64,000 nucleotides of DNA from Escherichia coli (lineage in GTDB: Bacteria > Pseudomonadota > Gammaproteobacteria > Enterobacterales > Enterobacteriaceae), in assembly GCF_044324785.1 (NCBI RefSeq), contig NZ_CP172127.1; one strand, 5' to 3'. This document shows, in pieces, positions 15,468 through 23,969 of this stretch. Within the stretch, counting starts at the first letter, position 1, and every line of letters starts with the position of its first letter. The position numbers and the translations under genes are program-made. Below the pieces are notes generated by a model. It was not told the origin of the DNA. It saw only the letters and a program-made list of their open reading frames with translations, and did not search any database.

Positions 15468-16493
15468 TCAGGAATGTAGCGCTGGATGCGCGACAAAAGG
15501 GGTTTTCTGTTTGTGTTTTTTCTCCTGATACATCGCGATATCGGCAGCATGCAGGGCACTGTCTGCATCGGTCGTTTCAGGATCGACTTCTACTATGCCA
15601 AGACTGGCACCGGGATAATACAAATCAACATCACCTAAGTGATATTCTCCACGTATTTGCTGTTGAATACGTTCTCGCAGCGACGAAATATCCGCATTCT
15701 CGTTGTTCAGTGAAACAACCAAAAACTCATCACCGCCGAGACGACCAATAACTTCGCCATTTTGCTGGAGCGTATTAAGGCGCTCGCCAACCTGAATGAG
15801 GAACAAATCACCACTATTATGACCAAAACGATCGTTGATTAATTTGAAGTTATCCAGATCGATAAACGCGATCATTATCTTATGGTTAAGATGTCGGGCG
15901 AGAGAAAACAGCGTCGTCAGGTTTTCAAAAATCGCCCGCCGATTCGGTAGCCCGGTTAACGAGTCGGTATACGATTGCGCAATCAGCGCAGCATTGGCTT
16001 CGCGCAGCTGTTCTACCAGCGCCTCTTTTTGAATATATTGTGCAATCAGTCCGGCGAATAACTGCAAAACCTGTTCCGCGCGTTCACTCCACTGGCGCTT
16101 CTCACTACTGGCGGCGCAAAGCGTGCCATAGAATGATCCATCCGGTAAGTGAATTGGCGTGCTCAGAAATGTGGTGATGCCAAGATTGCGTGCCGCAATA
16201 CAGTCGCCCCAACGGTCAGGGACTTCATCGCTGAAAAAGCAGTTTTCATCAATGGCGCGTTTGCATAACGAGTAATCCCACGAGACGGTAAAATTCTCCG
16301 GGATGTGCATTTTCTGGCTGTTACGGGCAAACATAATATGCTGCAGGCGCGCTTCGACATCCACTTTGGTCAGGTAGGTTGATTCCATATCAGTGACCAT
16401 TTCCAGCATCTCCAGAAGCTGTCGGACCAGGCTTTCCAGTGACTGTTCTTTGGCAAGGGATTGCGAGACGCGGGCGATAATCTGATCTGACAC
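15468..16493 (-). CDS. dgcP: diguanylate cyclase DgcP (YeaP), GAF-GGDEF
   Basis: GGDEF motif RLGGDEF with I-site-like RxxD context; GTG start at 16493 gives the 341-aa product; track ORF extended upstream. Confidence 0.85.
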   Translation of the reverse strand: MSDQIIARVSQSLAKEQSLESLVRQLLEMLEMVTDMESTYLTKVDVEARLQHIMFARNSQKMHIPENFTVSWDYSLCKRAIDENCFFSDEVPDRWGDCIAARNLGITTFLSTPIHLPDGSFYGTLCAASSEKRQWSERAEQVLQLFAGLIAQYIQKEALVEQLREANAALIAQSYTDSLTGLPNRRAIFENLTTLFSLARHLNHKIMIAFIDLDNFKLINDRFGHNSGDLFLIQVGERLNTLQQNGEVIGRLGGDEFLVVSLNNENADISSLRERIQQQIRGEYHLGDVDLYYPGASLGIVEVDPETTDADSALHAADIAMYQEKKHKQKTPFVAHPALHS

Positions 16494-16675
16494 GAAACAA
16501 CTCCAGGATACGGCGGGTAAATGCTGATTATTTAATCTTTGCAGGCATGATAAAACATCATCAACAAAGATGAAACAAGGCGTAATATGATTTGAGTGAA
16601 TGTAATAAAAATAGTGCTGCAAAACAAAACGATACCGCGATACTCTAAGCCTGGATAAATATGTGAGATCAATAA

Positions 16676-16930
16676 ATGAAAATTATCAGTTTTGTTCTGC
16701 CTTGCTTGCTGGTTCTGGCTGGTTGTTCAACCTCTTCTCAGCCAGAAGCACCTAAACCGCCGCAGATTGGTATGGCAAATCCGGCGTCGGTCTATTGCCA
16801 GCAGAAGGGCGGGACGCTCATTCCAGTGCAGACAGCGCAAGGGGTCAGCAACAATTGCAAATTACCGGGCGGTGAAACGATTGATGAATGGGCATTGTGG
16901 CGACGGGACCATCCGGCTGGTGAAAAATAA
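16676..16930 (+). CDS. yoaF: DUF333 lipoprotein YoaF
   Basis: 84 aa; signal peptide with lipobox LAGC. Confidence 0.8.
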   Translation: MKIISFVLPCLLVLAGCSTSSQPEAPKPPQIGMANPASVYCQQKGGTLIPVQTAQGVSNNCKLPGGETIDEWALWRRDHPAGEK

Positions 16931-16951
16931 CCGCCGGATGCTGTACTAAAA

Positions 16952-17299
16952 TCACAAGCTACGTAGCCAGTCGGCCAGCACCAGCGCATGGTTCTGCGTG
17001 GTGTTTTTTGCTGAGTAGAGCAGGGTCAGCGGCTGTTTTTTGGCGATGTCCGCCAGCCGCTTTCCTTCTTGCTCGTGTTGCGCCAGTTCTGCAAGATATT
17101 GCTCGCGAAAGGTTGCAAAATCGACGACTTCGCCGTGAAAGGCTTTGCGCAGTTCCGTTGACGGCGTGATTTCTTTATCCCACTCATCAAGGGCTAAATC
17201 GGTTTTTTTGATACCACGCGGCCAGAGGCGGTCGACCAGTACGCGATAACCATCGCTCTGTTCTGCCGGATCATAAACGCGTTTGCACTGAATATTCAT
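16952..17299 (-). CDS. yeaO: DUF488 protein YeaO
   Basis: 115-aa product from ATG 17299 (MNIQCKRVYD); track ORF has a 7-codon upstream extension. Confidence 0.8.
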   Translation of the reverse strand: MNIQCKRVYDPAEQSDGYRVLVDRLWPRGIKKTDLALDEWDKEITPSTELRKAFHGEVVDFATFREQYLAELAQHEQEGKRLADIAKKQPLTLLYSAKNTTQNHALVLADWLRSL

Positions 17300-17353
17300 C
17301 GTGTTTGTTCTCCCTTCCACGCATGATTGGTCACGTCACTATAGCACCGGATA

Positions 17354-18535
17354 TTAGCGAATTTCTTTGTCTCTCCCGGCGCAAAGTCCGAAAATCGCCA
17401 TCAGTAGTGAAAGTATGGCAACACCCATCAATGGTATGGACCAGTCACCGTTAGTATCGTGTATTTTACCCATCAGCGGCGGCCCACAGGCTGCCAGCAA
17501 ATACCCGACGGATTGTGCCATCCCCGAGAGTGCCGCCGCCTGATGCGCAGAACTTGCCCGAAGACCAATGAACGTCAACCCTAGTATCATTGTTGCGCCG
17601 GAACCAAAACCGAAAAGCAGAGTCCAGGTGATCGCGTGCGCTGGCATAAAGCAGAGCCCAACCGCGCCCACTGCGCACATCAAGGCAACGAACGCTGCAA
17701 TACCACGCTGATCTTTCACATGATGTAAGAAAAGTGGGATCAGCAAACCGGGAGCTGCTGTGGCTAGTTGCAGCAAACCATGCAGTGAACCCGCCTGTGC
17801 TTCGCTATAGCCGTGACTGATGAGGATCGCCGGAAGCCAGCCAATAATCACGTAATAGATCAGTGAGTTGATCCCAAGAAACAATGTTACCTGCCAGGCA
17901 AGCGGCGAACGCCAGATACCCCGAGTATGTAAGGCGCGTGAGGTACTCAAATTTGCATGTTGTTGACTTCGCCACTGTGGCAGCCATAAAAAAAGAGCCA
18001 GCAGAGGAAAACACATCAGCATGAGCAACGCGCCTTGCCAGCCAAAACCGTTCAAAGCCAGCGGCACGACCATAGCCGATCCCAGTGCCGCTGCAGCTCC
18101 CATTGTCAGGGAATATGCGCCGGTAAGTCTGGCGACGGAATGAGGGAAATCGCGTTTAATTAATCCTGGCAGTAAGACATTGCCTAATGCAATCCCACCG
18201 CCAATGACCGCTGTACCGCCAAATAATAAGTAAGGCGAAGGGAGAGAGCGAATTGCGATACCAGCACAGATCAAAAGTAACGCGGCAAACAGGCTACGCT
18301 CCATACCAAAACGTCGCGCCACCGGGGCAGCCAGCGGTGAGATTAGCGCAAAGGCTAATAATGGCAGGGTGGTCAATAAGCCGGTTTGCGCCGTCGTCAG
18401 CGAGTAAGCGAAACGAATCGTATCCAGTAACGGTGCTGCGCCGGTAAAGGTGACGCGTAATGTTGTGGCAATCATTAGAATGCCAGCGATAAGGACAATC
18501 CTGTTTTTGCCGCTTAATGAAGTTGAACAGGTCAT
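17354..18535 (-). CDS. yeaN: MFS transporter YeaN (NimT)
   Basis: 393-aa 12-TM-like ORF divergent from the AraC-family regulator yeaM. Confidence 0.8.
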   Translation of the reverse strand: MTCSTSLSGKNRIVLIAGILMIATTLRVTFTGAAPLLDTIRFAYSLTTAQTGLLTTLPLLAFALISPLAAPVARRFGMERSLFAALLLICAGIAIRSLPSPYLLFGGTAVIGGGIALGNVLLPGLIKRDFPHSVARLTGAYSLTMGAAAALGSAMVVPLALNGFGWQGALLMLMCFPLLALFLWLPQWRSQQHANLSTSRALHTRGIWRSPLAWQVTLFLGINSLIYYVIIGWLPAILISHGYSEAQAGSLHGLLQLATAAPGLLIPLFLHHVKDQRGIAAFVALMCAVGAVGLCFMPAHAITWTLLFGFGSGATMILGLTFIGLRASSAHQAAALSGMAQSVGYLLAACGPPLMGKIHDTNGDWSIPLMGVAILSLLMAIFGLCAGRDKEIR

Positions 18536-18631
18536 ATGCTTCTCATTGTTACAAACGAGGCTGTACCTTACCGTTTTTATTGTTATGTTGAATCAAGCTA
18601 AAATGACAAATTATCGCTAAATTCGGACAAA

Positions 18632-19453
18632 ATGATGCATAGGTTGAATCTCAATGGCTATGAACCCGACCGACACCATGAAGCCGCGGTCGCATTTTGT
18701 ATTCACGCCGGAACGGATGAGTTAACCAGTCCTGTACATCAGCACCGCAAAGGGCAGCTGATACTGGCGCTACATGGTGCAATTACCTGTACGGTGGAAA
18801 ATGCTTTGTGGATGGTGCCGCCGCAATATGCGGTTTGGATACCGGGAGGGGTGGAACATAGCAATCAAGTGACAGCTAACGCTGAACTCTGTTTTCTGTT
18901 TATCGAACCCAGCGCAGTGACAATGCCGACAACCTGTTGCACATTGAAAATATCGCCCTTATGCCGGGAATTAATTTTAACCCTGGCAAACAGGACGACG
19001 ACTCAGCGTGCTGAGCCGATGACCCGCAGATTAATTCAGGTCCTGTTTGATGAACTCCCTCAGCAGCCACAACAACAGCTGCACCTACCCGTTTCTTCTC
19101 ATCCTAAAATTCGCGCGATGGTGGAGATGATGGCGAAAGAGCCCGTCGAGTGGGGGTCATTGGGGCAATGGGCTCGCTTTTTTGCGATGAGTGAACGCAA
19201 TCTTGCCCGACTGATAGTGAAAGAGACGGGGTTGAGTTTTCGCCAGTGGCGTCAGCAGTTACAGCTGATTATGGCGCTTCAGGGATTAGTGAAAGGCGAT
19301 ACTGTACAGAAAGTTGCTCATACGCTGGGGTATGATTCAACAACGGCCTTTATTACTATGTTTAAGAAAGGCCTGGGGCAAACGCCAGGCCGATATATTG
19401 CGGGATTAACTACTGTTTCCCCACAATCAGCGAAACCAGACCCGCGGCAATAA
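18632..19453 (+). CDS. nimR: AraC-family transcriptional regulator NimR (YeaM)
   Basis: 273 aa; cupin-like N-terminus and C-terminal AraC HTH ([23 protein letters not shown]). Confidence 0.85.
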
Positions 19454-19856
19454 GCGGGCCAACCGGTACGCCGCGAAACAGCGCCACGCCCAAAACAGTG
19501 CCCACCAGCAGCCCGGCGACCAGTTGCGGCTGGCTGCCCATTAACGTCACGCCGCGCCCACCTAGCCAGGAGACAATAACGCCTACTGCAATTGCCACCA
19601 GCGATTTCCAGTTCAGAAACGAGTGAATCAGGGTTGAGGGCGGTAGCGTCCCGCTGGCGATGGGGGCCATAACGCCAATCGTCAGAATGATTATCCCGAT
19701 ACTTAGCCCCTGTTTTTCAATCCACGGGAAAAAGGTGCTTAACGGTGTGACGCGGACAATGATTAACACCAGAATTGAAACGGCGACAGTGGTGTTATGA
19801 CTGATAAAGCCCAGCGCAGCTAACCCGAGCAGGATCAGCAAAGTGACATCAAACAT
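19410..19856 (-). CDS. yeaL: DUF441 inner-membrane protein YeaL
   Basis: 148-aa hydrophobic ORF; its 3' end overlaps the nimR 3' end by 44 nt. Confidence 0.8.
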
Positions 19857-20025
19857 CGTGGTTTCCTTGCCAAAGAATAATAAGCCTGCTTACTTTACGC
19901 TTGCTGCAGGAAGGAAGTAGAAAATCTTTACGTTTTTTGCATAAAAAATCAGGCGAACTGTCATCAAACTGCCATTTGCGCACGCTAACAATAACGTGAA
20001 AACAGCTATCTCCCGGGGGCATACT

Positions 20026-20130
20026 ATGAACGATCAAATGTTCGTCGAGACTCTGATTATCACGTCATCGTTTTTTGCCATTGCTGTTGTGCTGGTTTTG
20101 TCCGTTCTTCTTATCGAACGGACAGGCTAG
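20026..20130 (+). CDS. yoaI: small membrane protein YoaI (34 aa)
   Basis: Direct reading gives [34 protein letters not shown] then TAG; stop codon abuts the yeaK stop. Confidence 0.75.
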
Positions 20131-20634
20131 TTACGCAGTGCGGCGGAAATTGACCAGTTCTGGTTGCGCAATGCGCAAATAATCCGCGGTTTTCAAAATA
20201 ACGGATTTATCCAGCATGCCTGCATTGAAGGCGATTTCATCAAATCGTTCGAAGAGTAGGGGATCGGCAACCAGTTTGAGTTTTGGATGGAAGCTGAAAG
20301 GGGGGATCGCGCCGAAGACACAGCCTGTGAGTTCATCGACTTCCGCCGGGCTGGCCAACGAAGCGCGTAATCCGCCTATATGGCTGGCGAGTTGGCTCAG
20401 ATCGGCCTGTTGATCGGCAGCGAGGATCGCCAGAACATGTTGATTTACACCATTGCCTTTGACTTTACATACCAGTGCCTTAGCCCCCTGGCCTAAAGCG
20501 GTGCCACGAATTTCTGACACCGCTTCACATTTACCTACCGCTTCATGGGTAACGACGCGGAAGTCAGCACCTTCTTGTGATAATAAAGCGATTAACCGCT
20601 GATGCGTCACGCTTCCTTTAGCCATTTCAGTCAT
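20131..20634 (-). CDS. yeaK: YbaK/ProX-type aminoacyl-tRNA deacylase YeaK
   Basis: 167-aa ORF MTEMAKGSVTHQRLIALLSQEGADFRVVTHEA. Confidence 0.8.
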   Translation of the reverse strand: MTEMAKGSVTHQRLIALLSQEGADFRVVTHEAVGKCEAVSEIRGTALGQGAKALVCKVKGNGVNQHVLAILAADQQADLSQLASHIGGLRASLASPAEVDELTGCVFGAIPPFSFHPKLKLVADPLLFERFDEIAFNAGMLDKSVILKTADYLRIAQPELVNFRRTA

Positions 20635-20676
20635 TTCATGCTCCTGAGATTACAAGCAAACAACCACAGAAGGTTA

Positions 20677-22167
20677 TCATGAACGGCTGTTTTTGTTCTG
20701 CTTATTGACATATAAACGCTCATCGGAAGCTTTATACGCATCATGTAACGTATCGTTTTCTTTCATCGCGTAAATACCGGAAGAGAAGCCGATCTCTTTC
20801 TGCGGCGCGATATGTTGCAGACGTTTTTCGATACGTTCAGGCAGTTGTGCTGCAATTTGCGGCGTTGAATCGACAAGAATGATGCAGAATTCATCGCCAC
20901 CGAGTCGGATGGCATAATCACTTTTACGAATCGACTGTTTAATCGCCTGCGCTAATAACGTAATCGCTAAATCCCCCTCCTGATGACCGAGGGTGTCATT
21001 TATTTGCTTTAACTTGTCCATGTCAATTGCAATAAACATCACCGAAGAACCGGATTGCACCAGTTTCTGCAACCGCTGCTCCAGTTCAGGGGTTAAAATT
21101 TTGCGATTATACAGTCCAGTCATCGCATCACTAATATTTTCTCGCGACACATTTTGGTATAAACGGAAGTGCATCCGGACCATATTCAACAAAATTAATG
21201 CCGTCAAAATCCAGAACAGAACGCTTTTCCACGAAGACGTGATAAAGTAAAGAATATCAATGGATAACGAGACACGAATGCCGCCCGGTAAGTCATGGAC
21301 GTAACTGACATACTGGAACAGATTATCTTCGCTCTGGTTGATGATAATGTCGCGCCCCGAATCGGTATCGGTTAGCGTGACATTGAGAAAACGCCAGAGG
21401 AGAGGGCGGTCATGAGTGTAAAAGATATTCCGCAGATTGTTTTTGTTAATATCCAGCAGCACAATCCCTTTTAGCTGCCCTGCGACATATACCGGCGTCA
21501 GCAAACTCATCACGTTCTGTTTAGTACGCTGATCCTGGTAAATGCTCGATAATACGGTACGCCCGGTAAATACCTTTTCAATATCTTTGCGATCGATGCC
21601 AATACTTCCTGACTGCAGGAAAGACCAGTTATTCATCGCAAAGTACTCAACATTAACCGGCTCATAAAAATAGACATAGCGGTCATTGAGATCGAGATAA
21701 TAGTGAAATTTCTCTTCGGCCATCCCAAGACCTGAACCGTAATCATCCTGGTGGCGGTTGCCTTCCACTGCCTGATCAAAAGCGGGTAATAGTGCAGCAG
21801 CTTCCACAATTGTGTCGCAGTCAGTGGATGCGGTTTGTAGTGTGCCGCGTAAGCCCGGGTATTTATGGGCAGTCAGGTTTAAGCCATGGGTATTATTGGC
21901 AGACTCAAAAGCCTCGCAGATGGCGCGCCGCTGTTCTGGCGACACTTCCGACTGCTCAGCAGCGAGAGCGCGCATCACATGCGCGGCAATACTCTGATTC
22001 TGATACTTATCATAAAGAAAGGAGGAGTCTGCTCTCTGCACGATATAGCGCAGATAGGCACTCATTGCTCTGTCGCTGGCGACAAGTTCAAAAATAAGGA
22101 AGGAAGATGTCAGCACAATGACACTTGCGGCGATAAAATGCCGGAGCATTCTATGGTGCAATTTCAT
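20677..22167 (-). CDS. dgcJ: membrane diguanylate cyclase DgcJ (YeaJ)
   Basis: GGDEF motif RLGGDEF; two TM segments flanking a periplasmic sensor region; conserved start MKLHHRMLRHF at ATG 22167 (track ORF extended by 60 codons). Confidence 0.85.
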   Translation of the reverse strand: MKLHHRMLRHFIAASVIVLTSSFLIFELVASDRAMSAYLRYIVQRADSSFLYDKYQNQSIAAHVMRALAAEQSEVSPEQRRAICEAFESANNTHGLNLTAHKYPGLRGTLQTASTDCDTIVEAAALLPAFDQAVEGNRHQDDYGSGLGMAEEKFHYYLDLNDRYVYFYEPVNVEYFAMNNWSFLQSGSIGIDRKDIEKVFTGRTVLSSIYQDQRTKQNVMSLLTPVYVAGQLKGIVLLDINKNNLRNIFYTHDRPLLWRFLNVTLTDTDSGRDIIINQSEDNLFQYVSYVHDLPGGIRVSLSIDILYFITSSWKSVLFWILTALILLNMVRMHFRLYQNVSRENISDAMTGLYNRKILTPELEQRLQKLVQSGSSVMFIAIDMDKLKQINDTLGHQEGDLAITLLAQAIKQSIRKSDYAIRLGGDEFCIILVDSTPQIAAQLPERIEKRLQHIAPQKEIGFSSGIYAMKENDTLHDAYKASDERLYVNKQNKNSRS

Positions 22168-22347
22168 GATAAATGGCACTCCTTCGGTTAGTGAAACGAG
22201 AAAACCAGTTAAAGTTCGATTGCGGCCTGGCACAGGGGCGCTAATTATACTCATCTCTGCGCCGCTGGGGAGGGGAAATTTAGGGGTAATAGTAATAAAT
22301 TGTATGCAAAAGCCACGCAAAAAGCATGGCTCTGAATATTTTTGCAC

Positions 22348-23823
22348 TTAAATATGATGAATAATCACTTTGTTGCCCCCATCGCTTTTCGCTTCGCGTA
22401 AGGCTTTATCTGCTTCCGTCATGACAAGCGAGATATTACGTGTGTCACCCGTTGAAAAAACCGTGCCAATACTGATGGTCATTTGCTCAGGAACATCATA
22501 TCTGTTACTAAAGCCGGTCAGGAGTTCGACATTTTTACGCATACGATCCGCAATGATTTTTGCCTGGGCACTATTGAGTTCGGTAAATAGCAAGCCAAAC
22601 ACCTCACCCTCCAGTCGCGCTAAAATATCATCGGGGCGGATGCTTTGCTGGATAATATCGACAATTGAAACCAGCACTTTATCACCCACACGATGTCCCC
22701 ATTGGGCATTGATGCGTTTGAACTGATTAATATCAACCAGCATGACACAGAAGTCCTTAACAACAGGTCGCGACAATAATGACTCTACGCTGTTGAAAAA
22801 GTAGCGCCGATTATAAATATTGGTCAGCACATCATGAACTGCCAGTTTGCTGGAGAGTTGCAGTTCCTGAAAAATGTTATAAATCAGAAAAGACACAACA
22901 AACAGTTTACTGGAGACTTCAATCCCGCGACTGATATACCAGATGGTATAATTATACTCATCCAGAGTCAGTAGAAGTAAGTTGCAGCATAGCGATGCCA
23001 GACATAATAATGCTATTAACGGCCATAGTTCGCTGGCTAATCGTGTACGCATGATAATAAAGAACAGTAAAAATGCCCACAGACAAACCAATATTTTTGT
23101 ATAGTTGATTCCCCAGGTCGCAGTATGGTTGTCCGGACAGTAATCGACGACATACAAAGAATAGTCAGCGTTATAACTGCTCAGATTGTGTGCCAGAAGG
23201 GGAAAAACTAAAAAAGGAATCAGCGCCAGCAACAGGATCCCCGTTTTTTTCTTATTGTTGTCAAGGATGTTGTCTTTACCATAACAAAAGAGCGCCAGCG
23301 AGGTTAAACAAATAAAACTGAGTTGGCGGAAAATATAGAAAATAGAAACATCATTCGACTTTGTCTGGATCAGTGTGCTGTCGTTGATTGGTTTATGGAT
23401 AATTACAATGGTTTCAACTAAATAGATAAGGCCACTTAAAAATGCAAGGCTTAAAATGAGTGTTGGTAAAATTTGTTTGTTAGTGAAATATTTCATTAAC
23501 ATGAAAAGAAAAATGACGGCGTTAAGGAAAAACAAAGCCACAACAACCATCAGGTAATTCATCTGTGGGATGAGTTTTACATTCGTGTTTTCGTTATATA
23601 AGGTAGTAATGCAAAATAAAATTAACGTCAGCAATAAACTGAAAATAAAAAAGCCTTGAGCTTTTAATTTTTGTGTACCCATAGAAACCATAAAAAGGAG
23701 AGCAATGTGAGTGCTGGATTTTATTGATGGCAGAGATATATAGTTTTGACCAGGATCAATTTTCGTTAACGATAAAAAATATTTAAAGAATAACCCCAGG
23801 GAAACACGTGTTGACCGAATCAT
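22348..23823 (-). CDS. cdgI: membrane GGDEF-domain protein CdgI (YeaI) with degenerate active site
   Basis: 491 aa; multi-TM N-terminus; GGDEF position reads EGEVF, so probably not a cyclase. Confidence 0.8.
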   Translation of the reverse strand: MIRSTRVSLGLFFKYFLSLTKIDPGQNYISLPSIKSSTHIALLFMVSMGTQKLKAQGFFIFSLLLTLILFCITTLYNENTNVKLIPQMNYLMVVVALFFLNAVIFLFMLMKYFTNKQILPTLILSLAFLSGLIYLVETIVIIHKPINDSTLIQTKSNDVSIFYIFRQLSFICLTSLALFCYGKDNILDNNKKKTGILLLALIPFLVFPLLAHNLSSYNADYSLYVVDYCPDNHTATWGINYTKILVCLWAFLLFFIIMRTRLASELWPLIALLCLASLCCNLLLLTLDEYNYTIWYISRGIEVSSKLFVVSFLIYNIFQELQLSSKLAVHDVLTNIYNRRYFFNSVESLLSRPVVKDFCVMLVDINQFKRINAQWGHRVGDKVLVSIVDIIQQSIRPDDILARLEGEVFGLLFTELNSAQAKIIADRMRKNVELLTGFSNRYDVPEQMTISIGTVFSTGDTRNISLVMTEADKALREAKSDGGNKVIIHHI

Positions 23824-23969
23824 TTTTCCGAATGATTGTTTTCTGGAACTAAATTGTGTAAAGGTTATGCTGTCATATTTAAAGCGATTGTAAGCTAATG
23901 TATGTAATAAATGAGATAATTTACAGTGAGCTAAAAATCAGCCAGGCGATAATGACCCGGCTGATAGTT

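Follow-up and report, generated by a model that had tools for sequence, protein, structure and literature searches.

GGDEF proteins with a degenerate active site can serve as c-di-GMP receptors. Caulobacter PopA and Pseudomonas PelD bind the nucleotide via their I-sites, and their GGDEF domains are joined to partner domains, i.e., receiver domains in PopA and a GAF domain plus transmembrane segments in PelD. By analogy, CdgI (YeaI) of Escherichia coli would resemble these receptors in pairing a non-catalytic A-site with a kept RxxD motif, but differs from them in its partner domain, MASE4. The two-domain MASE4-GGDEF architecture is that of DgcT (YcdT) and DgcX (family grouping as in PMC5635695 and PMC10459773). 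DgcT and CdgI have in common the local context SIRPDD-LAR-xGExF and a GC content of 0.39. DgcT and DgcX carry GGEEF and are active, whereas CdgI has EGEVF, NA for ND, and GGN for GRN, and the chromosomal sites of the genes differ. Orthologs from Citrobacter sp. R56, Awk 4, and NCU1 share 57-62% identity with CdgI and likewise lie between yeaH and dgcJ. Unlike CdgI, they have intact GGEEF, DxD, ND, and GRN, are presumably active, and represent the ancestral state. Neighboring same-strand c-di-GMP genes, as in cdgI-dgcJ, are also found in E. coli at dosC-dosP and pdeI-dgcI. In these pairs a cyclase gene and a phosphodiesterase gene lie 7-24 nt apart, while cdgI and dgcJ are separated by 180 nt with a hairpin and a -10 box in between; according to Sarenko 2017, a single operon encodes DgcO (DosC) and PdeO (DosP) (PMC5635695).

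The yeaH-cdgI(yeaI)-dgcJ ... dgcP region is a known and well-studied E. coli locus. Published work already covers the genes with their names, the degeneration of the CdgI motif and its intact I-site, the finding that CdgI binds c-di-GMP, and its kinship with DgcT and DgcX. In Sarenko 2017 (PMC5635695), the purified GGDEF domain of CdgI is reported to bind c-di-GMP and to contact several other GGDEF domains, and the protein is reported as undetectable, toxic on overexpression, and CsrA-repressed. CdgI has been termed catalytically non-functional in a study that sets out the YcdT/DgcX/YeaI MASE4 family (PMC10459773), and cdgI is activated by the regulator SrsR (PMC9181523). Here, we arrive, with a probability of roughly 0.78, at a locus composed of two conventional cyclases and an A-site-decayed, I-site-retaining MASE4-GGDEF protein, CdgI, that was assembled by independent events and is transcribed as separate units. 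Our comparative additions are modest and consist of the intact A-site in Citrobacter, its drift in Escherichia, and purifying selection on the I-site and the whole protein.

We analyzed a stretch of 64,000 nucleotides from E. coli (contig NZ_CP172127.1; henceforth termed the window), in which positions 15468-23823 begin at the stop codon of dgcP and end at the annotated start of cdgI. An earlier note had placed three minus-strand GGDEF-domain genes within these 8.4 kb, with RLGGDEF motifs in dgcP and dgcJ, EGEVF in cdgI/yeaI, and yeaI next to dgcJ. The ORFs lie on the minus strand where it located them, all three motifs are present in the translations, and cdgI and dgcJ are adjacent with 180 nt between them. 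The coding sequences are as follows.

22348..23823, minus strand: cdgI (yeaI), annotated CDS of 491 aa, MASE4 plus degenerate GGDEF (ORF, Pfam, RefSeq annotation)
20677..22167, minus strand: dgcJ (yeaJ), CDS of 496 aa, GAPES1 periplasmic sensor plus intact GGDEF (Pfam, NCBIfam)
15468..16493, minus strand: dgcP (yeaP), CDS of 341 aa, GAF plus intact GGDEF (Pfam, annotation)

The gene order is that of the E. coli chromosomal locus, yeaG-yeaH-cdgI-dgcJ-yeaK-yoaI-yeaL-nimR-nimT-yeaO-yoaF-dgcP. Mechanically called ORFs were too long for dgcJ (556 aa from GTG at 22347; annotated start ATG at 22167, 496 aa) and for dgcP (384 aa from TTG at 16622; annotated start GTG at 16493, 341 aa). The 8.4-kb stretch, annotated with dgcP, dgcJ, and cdgI, is present in 5421 of 5426 complete E. 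coli genomes at 95-99.5% identity, and the three-gene locus appears under the same gene names in 5399 of them.

All three proteins match the Pfam GGDEF family (PF00990; CdgI, E 5.4e-44; DgcJ, E 7.5e-40; DgcP, E 7.5e-41) and TIGR00254 (121-126 bits, cutoff 37.4). The GG[D/E]EF A-site is intact, as GGDEF, in DgcP (VIGRLGGDEFLVV; aa 253-257 of 341, nt 15723-15737) and in DgcJ (YAIRLGGDEFCII; aa 423-427 of 496, nt 20887-20901), and is replaced by EGEVF in CdgI (ILARLEGEVFGLL; aa 405-409 of 491, nt 22597-22611). The sensor regions belong to GAPES1 in DgcJ (Pfam, E 1.3e-150) and to GAF_2 in DgcP (Pfam, E 3e-10). With 747 bits, DgcJ exceeds the cutoff of 500 of its NCBIfam equivalog family NF040885, of which CdgI (65.7 bits) and DgcP (84 bits) are not members. 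An RxxD I-site occurs in CdgI (RPDD) and DgcJ (RKSD); DgcP has QNGE at that place. DgcJ and DgcP are conventional diguanylate cyclases with different sensors, a periplasmic GAPES1/dCache domain and a cytoplasmic GAF domain, respectively. The features of CdgI and the I-site of DgcJ are located as follows.

22867..23562, minus strand: MASE4 integral-membrane sensor domain, CdgI aa 88-319 (Pfam PF17158, E 3.7e-48)
22369..22842, minus strand: CdgI GGDEF domain, aa 328-485 (Pfam PF00990)
22597..22611, minus strand: degenerate A-site EGEVF in place of GG[D/E]EF, CdgI aa 405-409 (translation)
22627..22638, minus strand: I-site RPDD (RxxD), CdgI aa 396-399, five residues upstream of the A-site (translation)
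23689..23691, minus strand: Met45 codon of cdgI, the ortholog-conserved start that gives a 447-aa form (ortholog comparison)
20917..20928, minus strand: I-site RKSD (RxxD) of DgcJ (translation)

With an N-terminal PF17158 domain followed by GGDEF and similarity to DgcT over its full length, CdgI has the organization of the MASE4-GGDEF family. Its orthologs are 445-448 aa long versus the 491 aa annotated in E. coli, the DgcT alignment starts at CdgI residue 48, and the 44 codons upstream of Met45 hold stops in E. albertii, in an E. fergusonii-like contig (L016), and in Citrobacter-like loci.

Beyond the EGEVF motif, the A-site of CdgI has lost further residues, with NA for ND and GGN for GRN, the latter being intact in orthologs with GGEEF. 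An alignment of eight orthologs showed that CdgI retains the first metal-binding Asp as well as the guanine-contacting Asn and Asp, so that the A-site may still bind nucleotide; the third-position Glu of the motif is also kept in E. coli. In the same alignment the Arg and Asp of the I-site are invariant, and a single Escherichia genome (L018) has HPDD instead. A decayed A-site combined with a retained RxxD motif suggests that CdgI most likely makes no c-di-GMP, and its mode of action is most likely regulatory. The idea that the degenerate motif predicts a non-catalytic, possibly c-di-GMP-sensing protein, put forward in the earlier note, is supported by these data but had already appeared in print, in Sarenko 2017 (PMC5635695).

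It is quite unlikely that CdgI is instead a working, perhaps weak, diguanylate cyclase in spite of EGEVF. This alternative can draw on several residues that E. coli retains (the metal-binding Asp, Asn and Asp at the guanine contact, and Glu at the third position), yet the first Gly and the fourth-position Glu of GG[D/E]EF are substituted and Gly replaces Arg in the C-terminal GRN motif. Spurbeck 2012, whose table lists the YeaI residues as KNAHDR-EGEVF, counts YeaI among the "verified" cyclases, citing Sanchez-Torres 2011 (PMC3484386). In that study the cyclase WspR restored biofilm formation to a CFT073 yeaI mutant in no-salt LB, which would fit an active YeaI, but failed to do so in M9-glycerol, which would not (PMC3484386). 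Later papers treat the protein as inactive (PMC5635695 and PMC10459773). A full-text literature search for the motif "EGEVF" returned no match. Sanchez-Torres 2011 reportedly found the EGEVF motif to be necessary for the effect of YeaI on motility. As a whole, the literature on YeaI is contradictory with respect to cyclase activity (PMC5635695, PMC3484386, PMC10459773).

Orthologs indicate how the non-catalytic A-site of CdgI arose. In every Escherichia species sampled the motif is degenerate, in the forms EGEVF, EGEEF, DGEVF, EGDVF, EGNVF, and EGKRF, and all Escherichia forms have GGN or SGN where GRN is expected. Motif positions 1 (E/D), 3 (E/D/N/K), and 4 (V/E/R) drift freely across these species, which would be unexpected under catalytic constraint and argues further against an active CdgI. 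GGEEF and GRN are intact in Citrobacter sp. R56, Awk 4, and NCU1 and in one further contig (P0020), all four with the ortholog in yeaH-ortholog-dgcJ-yeaK synteny. Intact GGEEF in syntenic Citrobacter genes, together with the variable degenerate motif in Escherichia, indicates that the active site decayed in place.

Decay of the active site could also mark cdgI as a functionless, decaying pseudogene. The degenerate A-site, the failure to observe the protein in laboratory cultures (PMC5635695), C-terminally truncated forms in the protein database (P0013, P0019, P0023), and the missing gene in S. flexneri 2457T would fit this view, which is nevertheless scarcely credible given the remaining data. 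Judged by coverage, 5408 of 5426 complete E. coli genomes carry an unbroken reading frame; it is also intact in each of the Escherichia species that were sampled, and the I-site is conserved. Between E. coli and E. albertii, dN/dS is 0.072 in both domains of cdgI and 0.033 for dgcJ, values that are approximate since dS is about 1 and thus near saturation. The overall range for both cdgI domains is about 0.07-0.10, as computed for E. coli, E. albertii, and the cryptic clades, wider comparisons being saturated (dS undefined) and left out. Deletion phenotypes (PMC3484386) and regulated expression (PMC9181523) have been published as well. The data are better accounted for by a non-catalytic CdgI maintained by selection; taken together, the locus offers a small, clean example of how an enzyme probably became a receptor without changing its chromosomal position.

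The clustering of an active and an inactive paralog had been taken in the earlier note as a sign of a duplicated signaling module, in which cdgI and dgcJ, and perhaps dgcP, would be copies of one ancestral cyclase with one copy inactivated. The genes are indeed adjacent, on the same strand, and have a GGDEF domain in common, and when 19 GGDEF-domain genes were placed randomly on a 4.64-Mb circle, about 0.9% of the simulations had three of them inside 8356 bp (a nominal P of ~0.009 from a post-hoc test). The clustering is therefore nominally non-random, but the comparative data point to stepwise assembly and not to a single event. Neither mutual closest paralogy nor a shared architecture, as expected of tandem duplicates, was found for cdgI and dgcJ. 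Their N-terminal domains and that of DgcP are unrelated (MASE4, GAPES1, and GAF), and among 12 K-12 cyclases the best paralog of CdgI is DgcT, with 37% identity over 449 aa (E 1.5e-98), i.e., over the full length, and 45% in the GGDEF domain alone; dgcT lies elsewhere on the chromosome, away from cdgI. Sorted by bit score against CdgI, DgcJ comes only 8th of 12, with 27% identity confined to the GGDEF domain; in the ranking for DgcJ, CdgI is 9th of 12. The nearest paralogs are DgcO and DgcQ for DgcJ, and DgcQ, DgcE, and DgcC for DgcP, so that these two are not mutual nearest relatives among the 12 either. GC content is 0.388 in cdgI (0.363 5' of its GGDEF region, 0.36-0.38 in its orthologs) and 0.386 in dgcT versus 0.46 in dgcJ and 0.498 in the window. 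Salmonella, C. freundii, and Klebsiella (K. oxytoca) have dgcJ without cdgI. Since the syntenic Citrobacter orthologs keep GGEEF, inactive CdgI appears to result from in-place decay of an active MASE4 cyclase and not from copying of dgcJ. On these grounds we regard tandem duplication as highly improbable and do not uphold the duplicated module.

We instead favor a scenario in which independent events brought the three genes together, with dgcJ being old at its site. In Escherichia and a few Citrobacter species, a low-GC MASE4-GGDEF gene with intact GGEEF would have come to occupy the space between yeaH and dgcJ, and it would then have lost its active site in the Escherichia lineage while remaining under purifying selection. 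Between yeaH and dgcJ, neither Salmonella nor C. freundii nor K. oxytoca yielded any cdgI remnants, so this test does not separate gain from loss of cdgI.

Cross-species alignment of the cdgI-dgcJ intergenic region revealed two elements that a generic promoter and terminator scan had both missed.

22309..22333, minus strand: terminator-like hairpin directly 3' of the cdgI stop (MFE -15.5 kcal/mol, z = -4.05)
22244..22250, minus strand: GTATAAT, -10-like box upstream of dgcJ (cross-species alignment)

The hairpin shows compensatory changes at 7 of 11 pairs (5 species), the GTATAAT box is unchanged across the 6 Escherichia and Citrobacter-like intergenic regions that were aligned, and a conserved Shine-Dalgarno sequence precedes dgcJ. 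A covarying hairpin and an invariant TATAAT between the genes, together with the 180-nt gap, argue against an operon and suggest that cdgI, with its predicted terminator, and dgcJ, with its predicted promoter, form separate transcription units.

As to mechanism, CdgI is a membrane-bound MASE4-GGDEF paralog of DgcT and DgcX with a decayed A-site and a kept RxxD motif. It most likely binds c-di-GMP at its I-site and acts by way of its GGDEF domain contacting other proteins, with MASE4 as the part that would contribute a signal from the membrane; expression is held very low under laboratory conditions. Citrobacter GGEEF and Escherichia EGEVF provide a natural pair for probing this role.

A more specific role can be imagined in relation to DgcJ, which signals locally to NfrB in phage N4 infection (PMC8669469, PMC8669472). 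That CdgI is dedicated to DgcJ, forming c-di-GMP-modulated heteromers that tune DgcJ output and hence NfrB-dependent glycan synthesis and phage N4 sensitivity, is rather unlikely. Unlikely, too, is the version in which CdgI is a c-di-GMP-gated, membrane-signal-responsive brake whose GGDEF heteromers control the DgcJ-NfrB signal and thereby the phage N4 glycan; if true, an enzyme would have been recruited as regulator of the neighboring cyclase after A-site decay in the Escherichia lineage. Against dedication, the two genes appear to be transcribed separately, dgcJ is common without cdgI, and our literature search for papers tying CdgI to DgcJ revealed no functional connection. In the text of Sarenko 2017, CdgI is described as undetectable under conditions where DgcJ is made, and none of its GGDEF partners is named (PMC5635695). 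In the N4 study, no dgc deletion except that of dgcJ had an effect; cdgI is not mentioned and may therefore not have been among the deletions tried (PMC8669469, PMC8669472). Dedication would nonetheless be in line with the contacts of the CdgI GGDEF domain, which according to Sarenko 2017 (PMC5635695) binds c-di-GMP and several other GGDEF domains, and with the intact GGDEF, I-site, and local action of DgcJ (PMC8669469, PMC8669472). It would also fit the genomic neighborhood, as cdgI orthologs adjoin dgcJ at every locus with enough flanking sequence.

Translation of the stretch at 15468-23823 bears out the claim of an earlier note that three GGDEF-domain genes lie on the minus strand within 8.4 kb. 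The observation is correct and already known. The annotated coding sequences are as follows:

15468-16493, minus strand: dgcP, 341 aa, GTG start
20677-22167, minus strand: dgcJ, 496 aa, ATG start
22348-23823, minus strand: cdgI (yeaI), 491 aa

Products of 384 aa (dgcP) and 556 aa (dgcJ) in a mechanical ORF list are over-extensions relative to the annotated starts, which give 341 and 496 aa. Megablast matched the 8.4-kb stretch to 5421 of the 5426 complete genomes of E. coli, 5399 of them at a coverage of at least 80% and 95-99.5% identity. Strain N3 gave the best-matching record; read in the plus-strand orientation of the window, its genes run dgcP, yoaF, yeaO, nimT, nimR, yeaL, yoaI, yeaK, dgcJ, cdgI, yeaH, yeaG. 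When 19 GGDEF-domain genes were placed at random on a 4.64-Mb circle, about 0.9% of trials brought three of them inside 8356 bp; by this post-hoc test, the clustering is therefore nominally non-random.

Each protein contains a full GGDEF domain (Pfam, E 1e-40 to 1e-44) joined to a different type of sensor: integral-membrane MASE4 in CdgI, periplasmic GAPES1 in DgcJ, and cytoplasmic GAF in DgcP. The catalytic A-site motifs read GRLGGDEF in DgcP, IRLGGDEF in DgcJ and ARLEGEVF in CdgI, as the earlier note had described (RLGGDEF in the first two, EGEVF in YeaI). An RxxD c-di-GMP-binding I-site is present in CdgI (RPDD, aa 396-399) and DgcJ (RKSD); the DgcP translation has QNGE at that position and no RxxD. 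DgcJ scores above the curated NCBIfam DgcJ equivalog cutoff (747 bits vs 500), and CdgI and DgcP pass the generic domain model only.

The local arrangement had also been taken to suggest a duplicated signalling module. We compared CdgI, DgcJ and DgcP with the ten remaining K-12 MG1655 cyclases of the GGDEF-only type, 13 proteins in all. The best paralog of CdgI is DgcT (37% identity across 449 residues, E 1.5e-98; 45% between the GGDEF domains), encoded elsewhere on the chromosome, a kinship published previously together with that to DgcX (PMC5635695; PMC10459773). Ranked by bit score against CdgI, DgcJ comes only 8th of 12, aligning over the GGDEF domain alone (27% identity, 58 bits). The nearest relatives of DgcJ are DgcO and DgcQ, and those of DgcP are DgcQ, DgcE and DgcC with almost tied scores. 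GC content is 0.388 in cdgI (0.363 in the part 5' of the GGDEF region), 0.459 in dgcJ and 0.498 in the whole window. The closer relationship to DgcT, the low rank of DgcJ and the differing GC argue that the neighbouring GGDEF genes are not duplicates of one another, and, with sensor domains that also differ, the duplication claim is unsupported. The marked AT-richness of cdgI relative to its neighbours and the window is shared by dgcT (0.386) and by the cdgI orthologs of E. fergusonii, E. albertii and Citrobacter (GC 0.36-0.38), which suggests foreign origin, silencing, or both.

Orthologs were surveyed by homolog searches, a scan of one genome per GTDB species and genomic-context look-up. Orthologs of cdgI lie between yeaH and dgcJ in E. 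coli, E. whittamii, E. albertii, E. fergusonii and three Citrobacter species (R56, Awk 4 and NCU1), as well as in genomes that carry the E. coli label at 87-90% identity and may represent cryptic clades. The three Citrobacter proteins (57-62% identity to CdgI) retain the complete catalytic set of GGEEF, DIDHFKxIND and GRN, and all remoter relatives, namely DgcT and the other-locus paralogs of Citrobacter werkmanii and C. youngae, carry GGEEF. The A-site is degenerate in every Escherichia ortholog sampled (EGEVF, EGEEF, DGEVF, EGDVF, EGNVF or EGKRF), and the Arg of GRN is substituted in all of them (GGN or SGN). These patterns are most simply read as loss of catalysis, within the Escherichia lineage, by a once-active MASE4 cyclase at the yeaH-dgcJ site, with drift of motif positions 1, 3 and 4 thereafter.

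Every cdgI ortholog found with enough flanking sequence is followed by dgcJ. In Salmonella, Citrobacter freundii and Klebsiella oxytoca, dgcJ comes after yeaH with no MASE4 gene in between, and no cdgI remnants were found in the yeaH-dgcJ gaps of these three; in K. oxytoca (locus L032) the gap holds an unrelated glycosyltransferase family 9 gene. Salmonella (locus L029) also lacks dgcP at this locus, i.e., between yoaF and yeaQ, a gene present there in C. freundii and E. fergusonii. The absence of cdgI from these three loci, and additionally of dgcP from that of Salmonella, argues that the three-gene cluster was built stepwise.

The drift at the A-site is not matched in the rest of CdgI. The I-site Arg and Asp are invariant in an eight-ortholog alignment, and the E. 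coli-E. albertii comparison gives a dN/dS of 0.072 for each of the two parts of cdgI, MASE4 and GGDEF, and of 0.033 for dgcJ, ratios that are approximate since dS is about 1. In the same species pair, the dN of CdgI (0.074) is roughly double that of DgcJ (0.037). The sole I-site change among the orthologs examined is HPDD for RPDD in Escherichia sp. MOD1-EC7003 (L018, 4001-5341), whose CdgI is 98% identical to that of the window and also has NT for NA. A pseudogene was rejected: of the 5426 complete E. coli genomes, 5408 contain cdgI at a coverage of at least 80%. At 99% identity or more within E. coli, the whole 8.4-kb region is found in 480 genomes and cdgI by itself in only 3.

To the architecture, motifs, evolutionary path and selective constraint documented here, published work adds functional data. 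Sarenko et al. 2017 (PMC5635695) reported the degenerate A-site and intact I-site of CdgI, and showed that its purified GGDEF domain binds c-di-GMP and interacts strongly with a number of other GGDEF domains; as a possible role for CdgI, the authors suggested inhibition of other GGDEF proteins via c-di-GMP-modulated heteromers. In the same study, CdgI was below detection in growth-cycle immunoblots, toxic on overexpression and described as known to be CsrA-repressed. SrsR activates cdgI in stationary phase (PMC9181523). CdgI is most likely a membrane-anchored MASE4 sensor, produced only under particular conditions, whose GGDEF domain, we infer, no longer synthesises c-di-GMP but still binds it at the I-site; it probably acts via protein-protein contact. 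The proposal of a non-catalytic receptor is reasonable and already in print. The main counter-evidence comes from one paper, where YeaI is counted among the verified cyclases and, in one medium, the yeaI defect was relieved by a cyclase of foreign origin (PMC3484386); reported motility and biofilm phenotypes of yeaI deletions are inconsistent across strains and media (including PMC3484386).

DgcJ has cyclase activity, signals locally to NfrB, a glycosyltransferase, and is the only cyclase that phage N4 requires for infection (PMC8669469, PMC8669472). DgcP is listed among the more strongly expressed cyclases that occur in every growth phase (PMC5635695). Its expression in S. flexneri is reported to raise c-di-GMP only slowly. 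A specific CdgI-DgcJ partnership is possible; a literature search for papers linking both found no functional connection.

Three sequence signals lie around cdgI; the first two below were missed by a generic promoter/terminator scan and emerged only from cross-species alignment:

22309-22333, minus strand: hairpin immediately 3' of the cdgI stop codon, -15.5 kcal/mol, z = -4.05
22244-22250, minus strand: invariant GTATAAT about 75 nt 5' of dgcJ
23937-23965, minus strand: terminator-like hairpin just 3' of the yeaH stop, upstream of cdgI, 11 pairs and then a run of T

Compensatory changes affect 7 of the 11 pairs of the cdgI hairpin across five species. Together with an invariant AAGGAG ahead of the dgcJ start, this hairpin and GTATAAT are conserved within the 180-nt cdgI-dgcJ spacer and point to separate transcription units, in agreement with published data in which DgcJ is produced and CdgI escapes detection (PMC5635695). 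The hairpin after yeaH suggests that cdgI is transcribed separately from yeaGH too.

The cdgI-dgcJ locus seems liable to rearrange. Published work on K-12 stocks describes insertions of IS1 into dgcJ as well as a cdgI-dgcJ' deletion. The protein database holds single-record CdgI-DgcJ fusions, e.g., MASE4+GAPES1+GGDEF (P0026, 532 aa; P0035, 560 aa), and sizeable clusters of C-terminally truncated CdgI of 281-345 aa without GGDEF (P0013, P0019, P0023).

The first 44 codons of the 491-aa cdgI annotation (23692-23823, minus strand) are not conserved as coding sequence: in E. albertii, in an E. fergusonii-like contig (L016) and at Citrobacter-like loci, this frame is interrupted by stops. The annotated orthologs span 445-448 aa and the DgcT alignment begins at CdgI residue 48; the true start is probably Met45 (23689-23691) or Met48.
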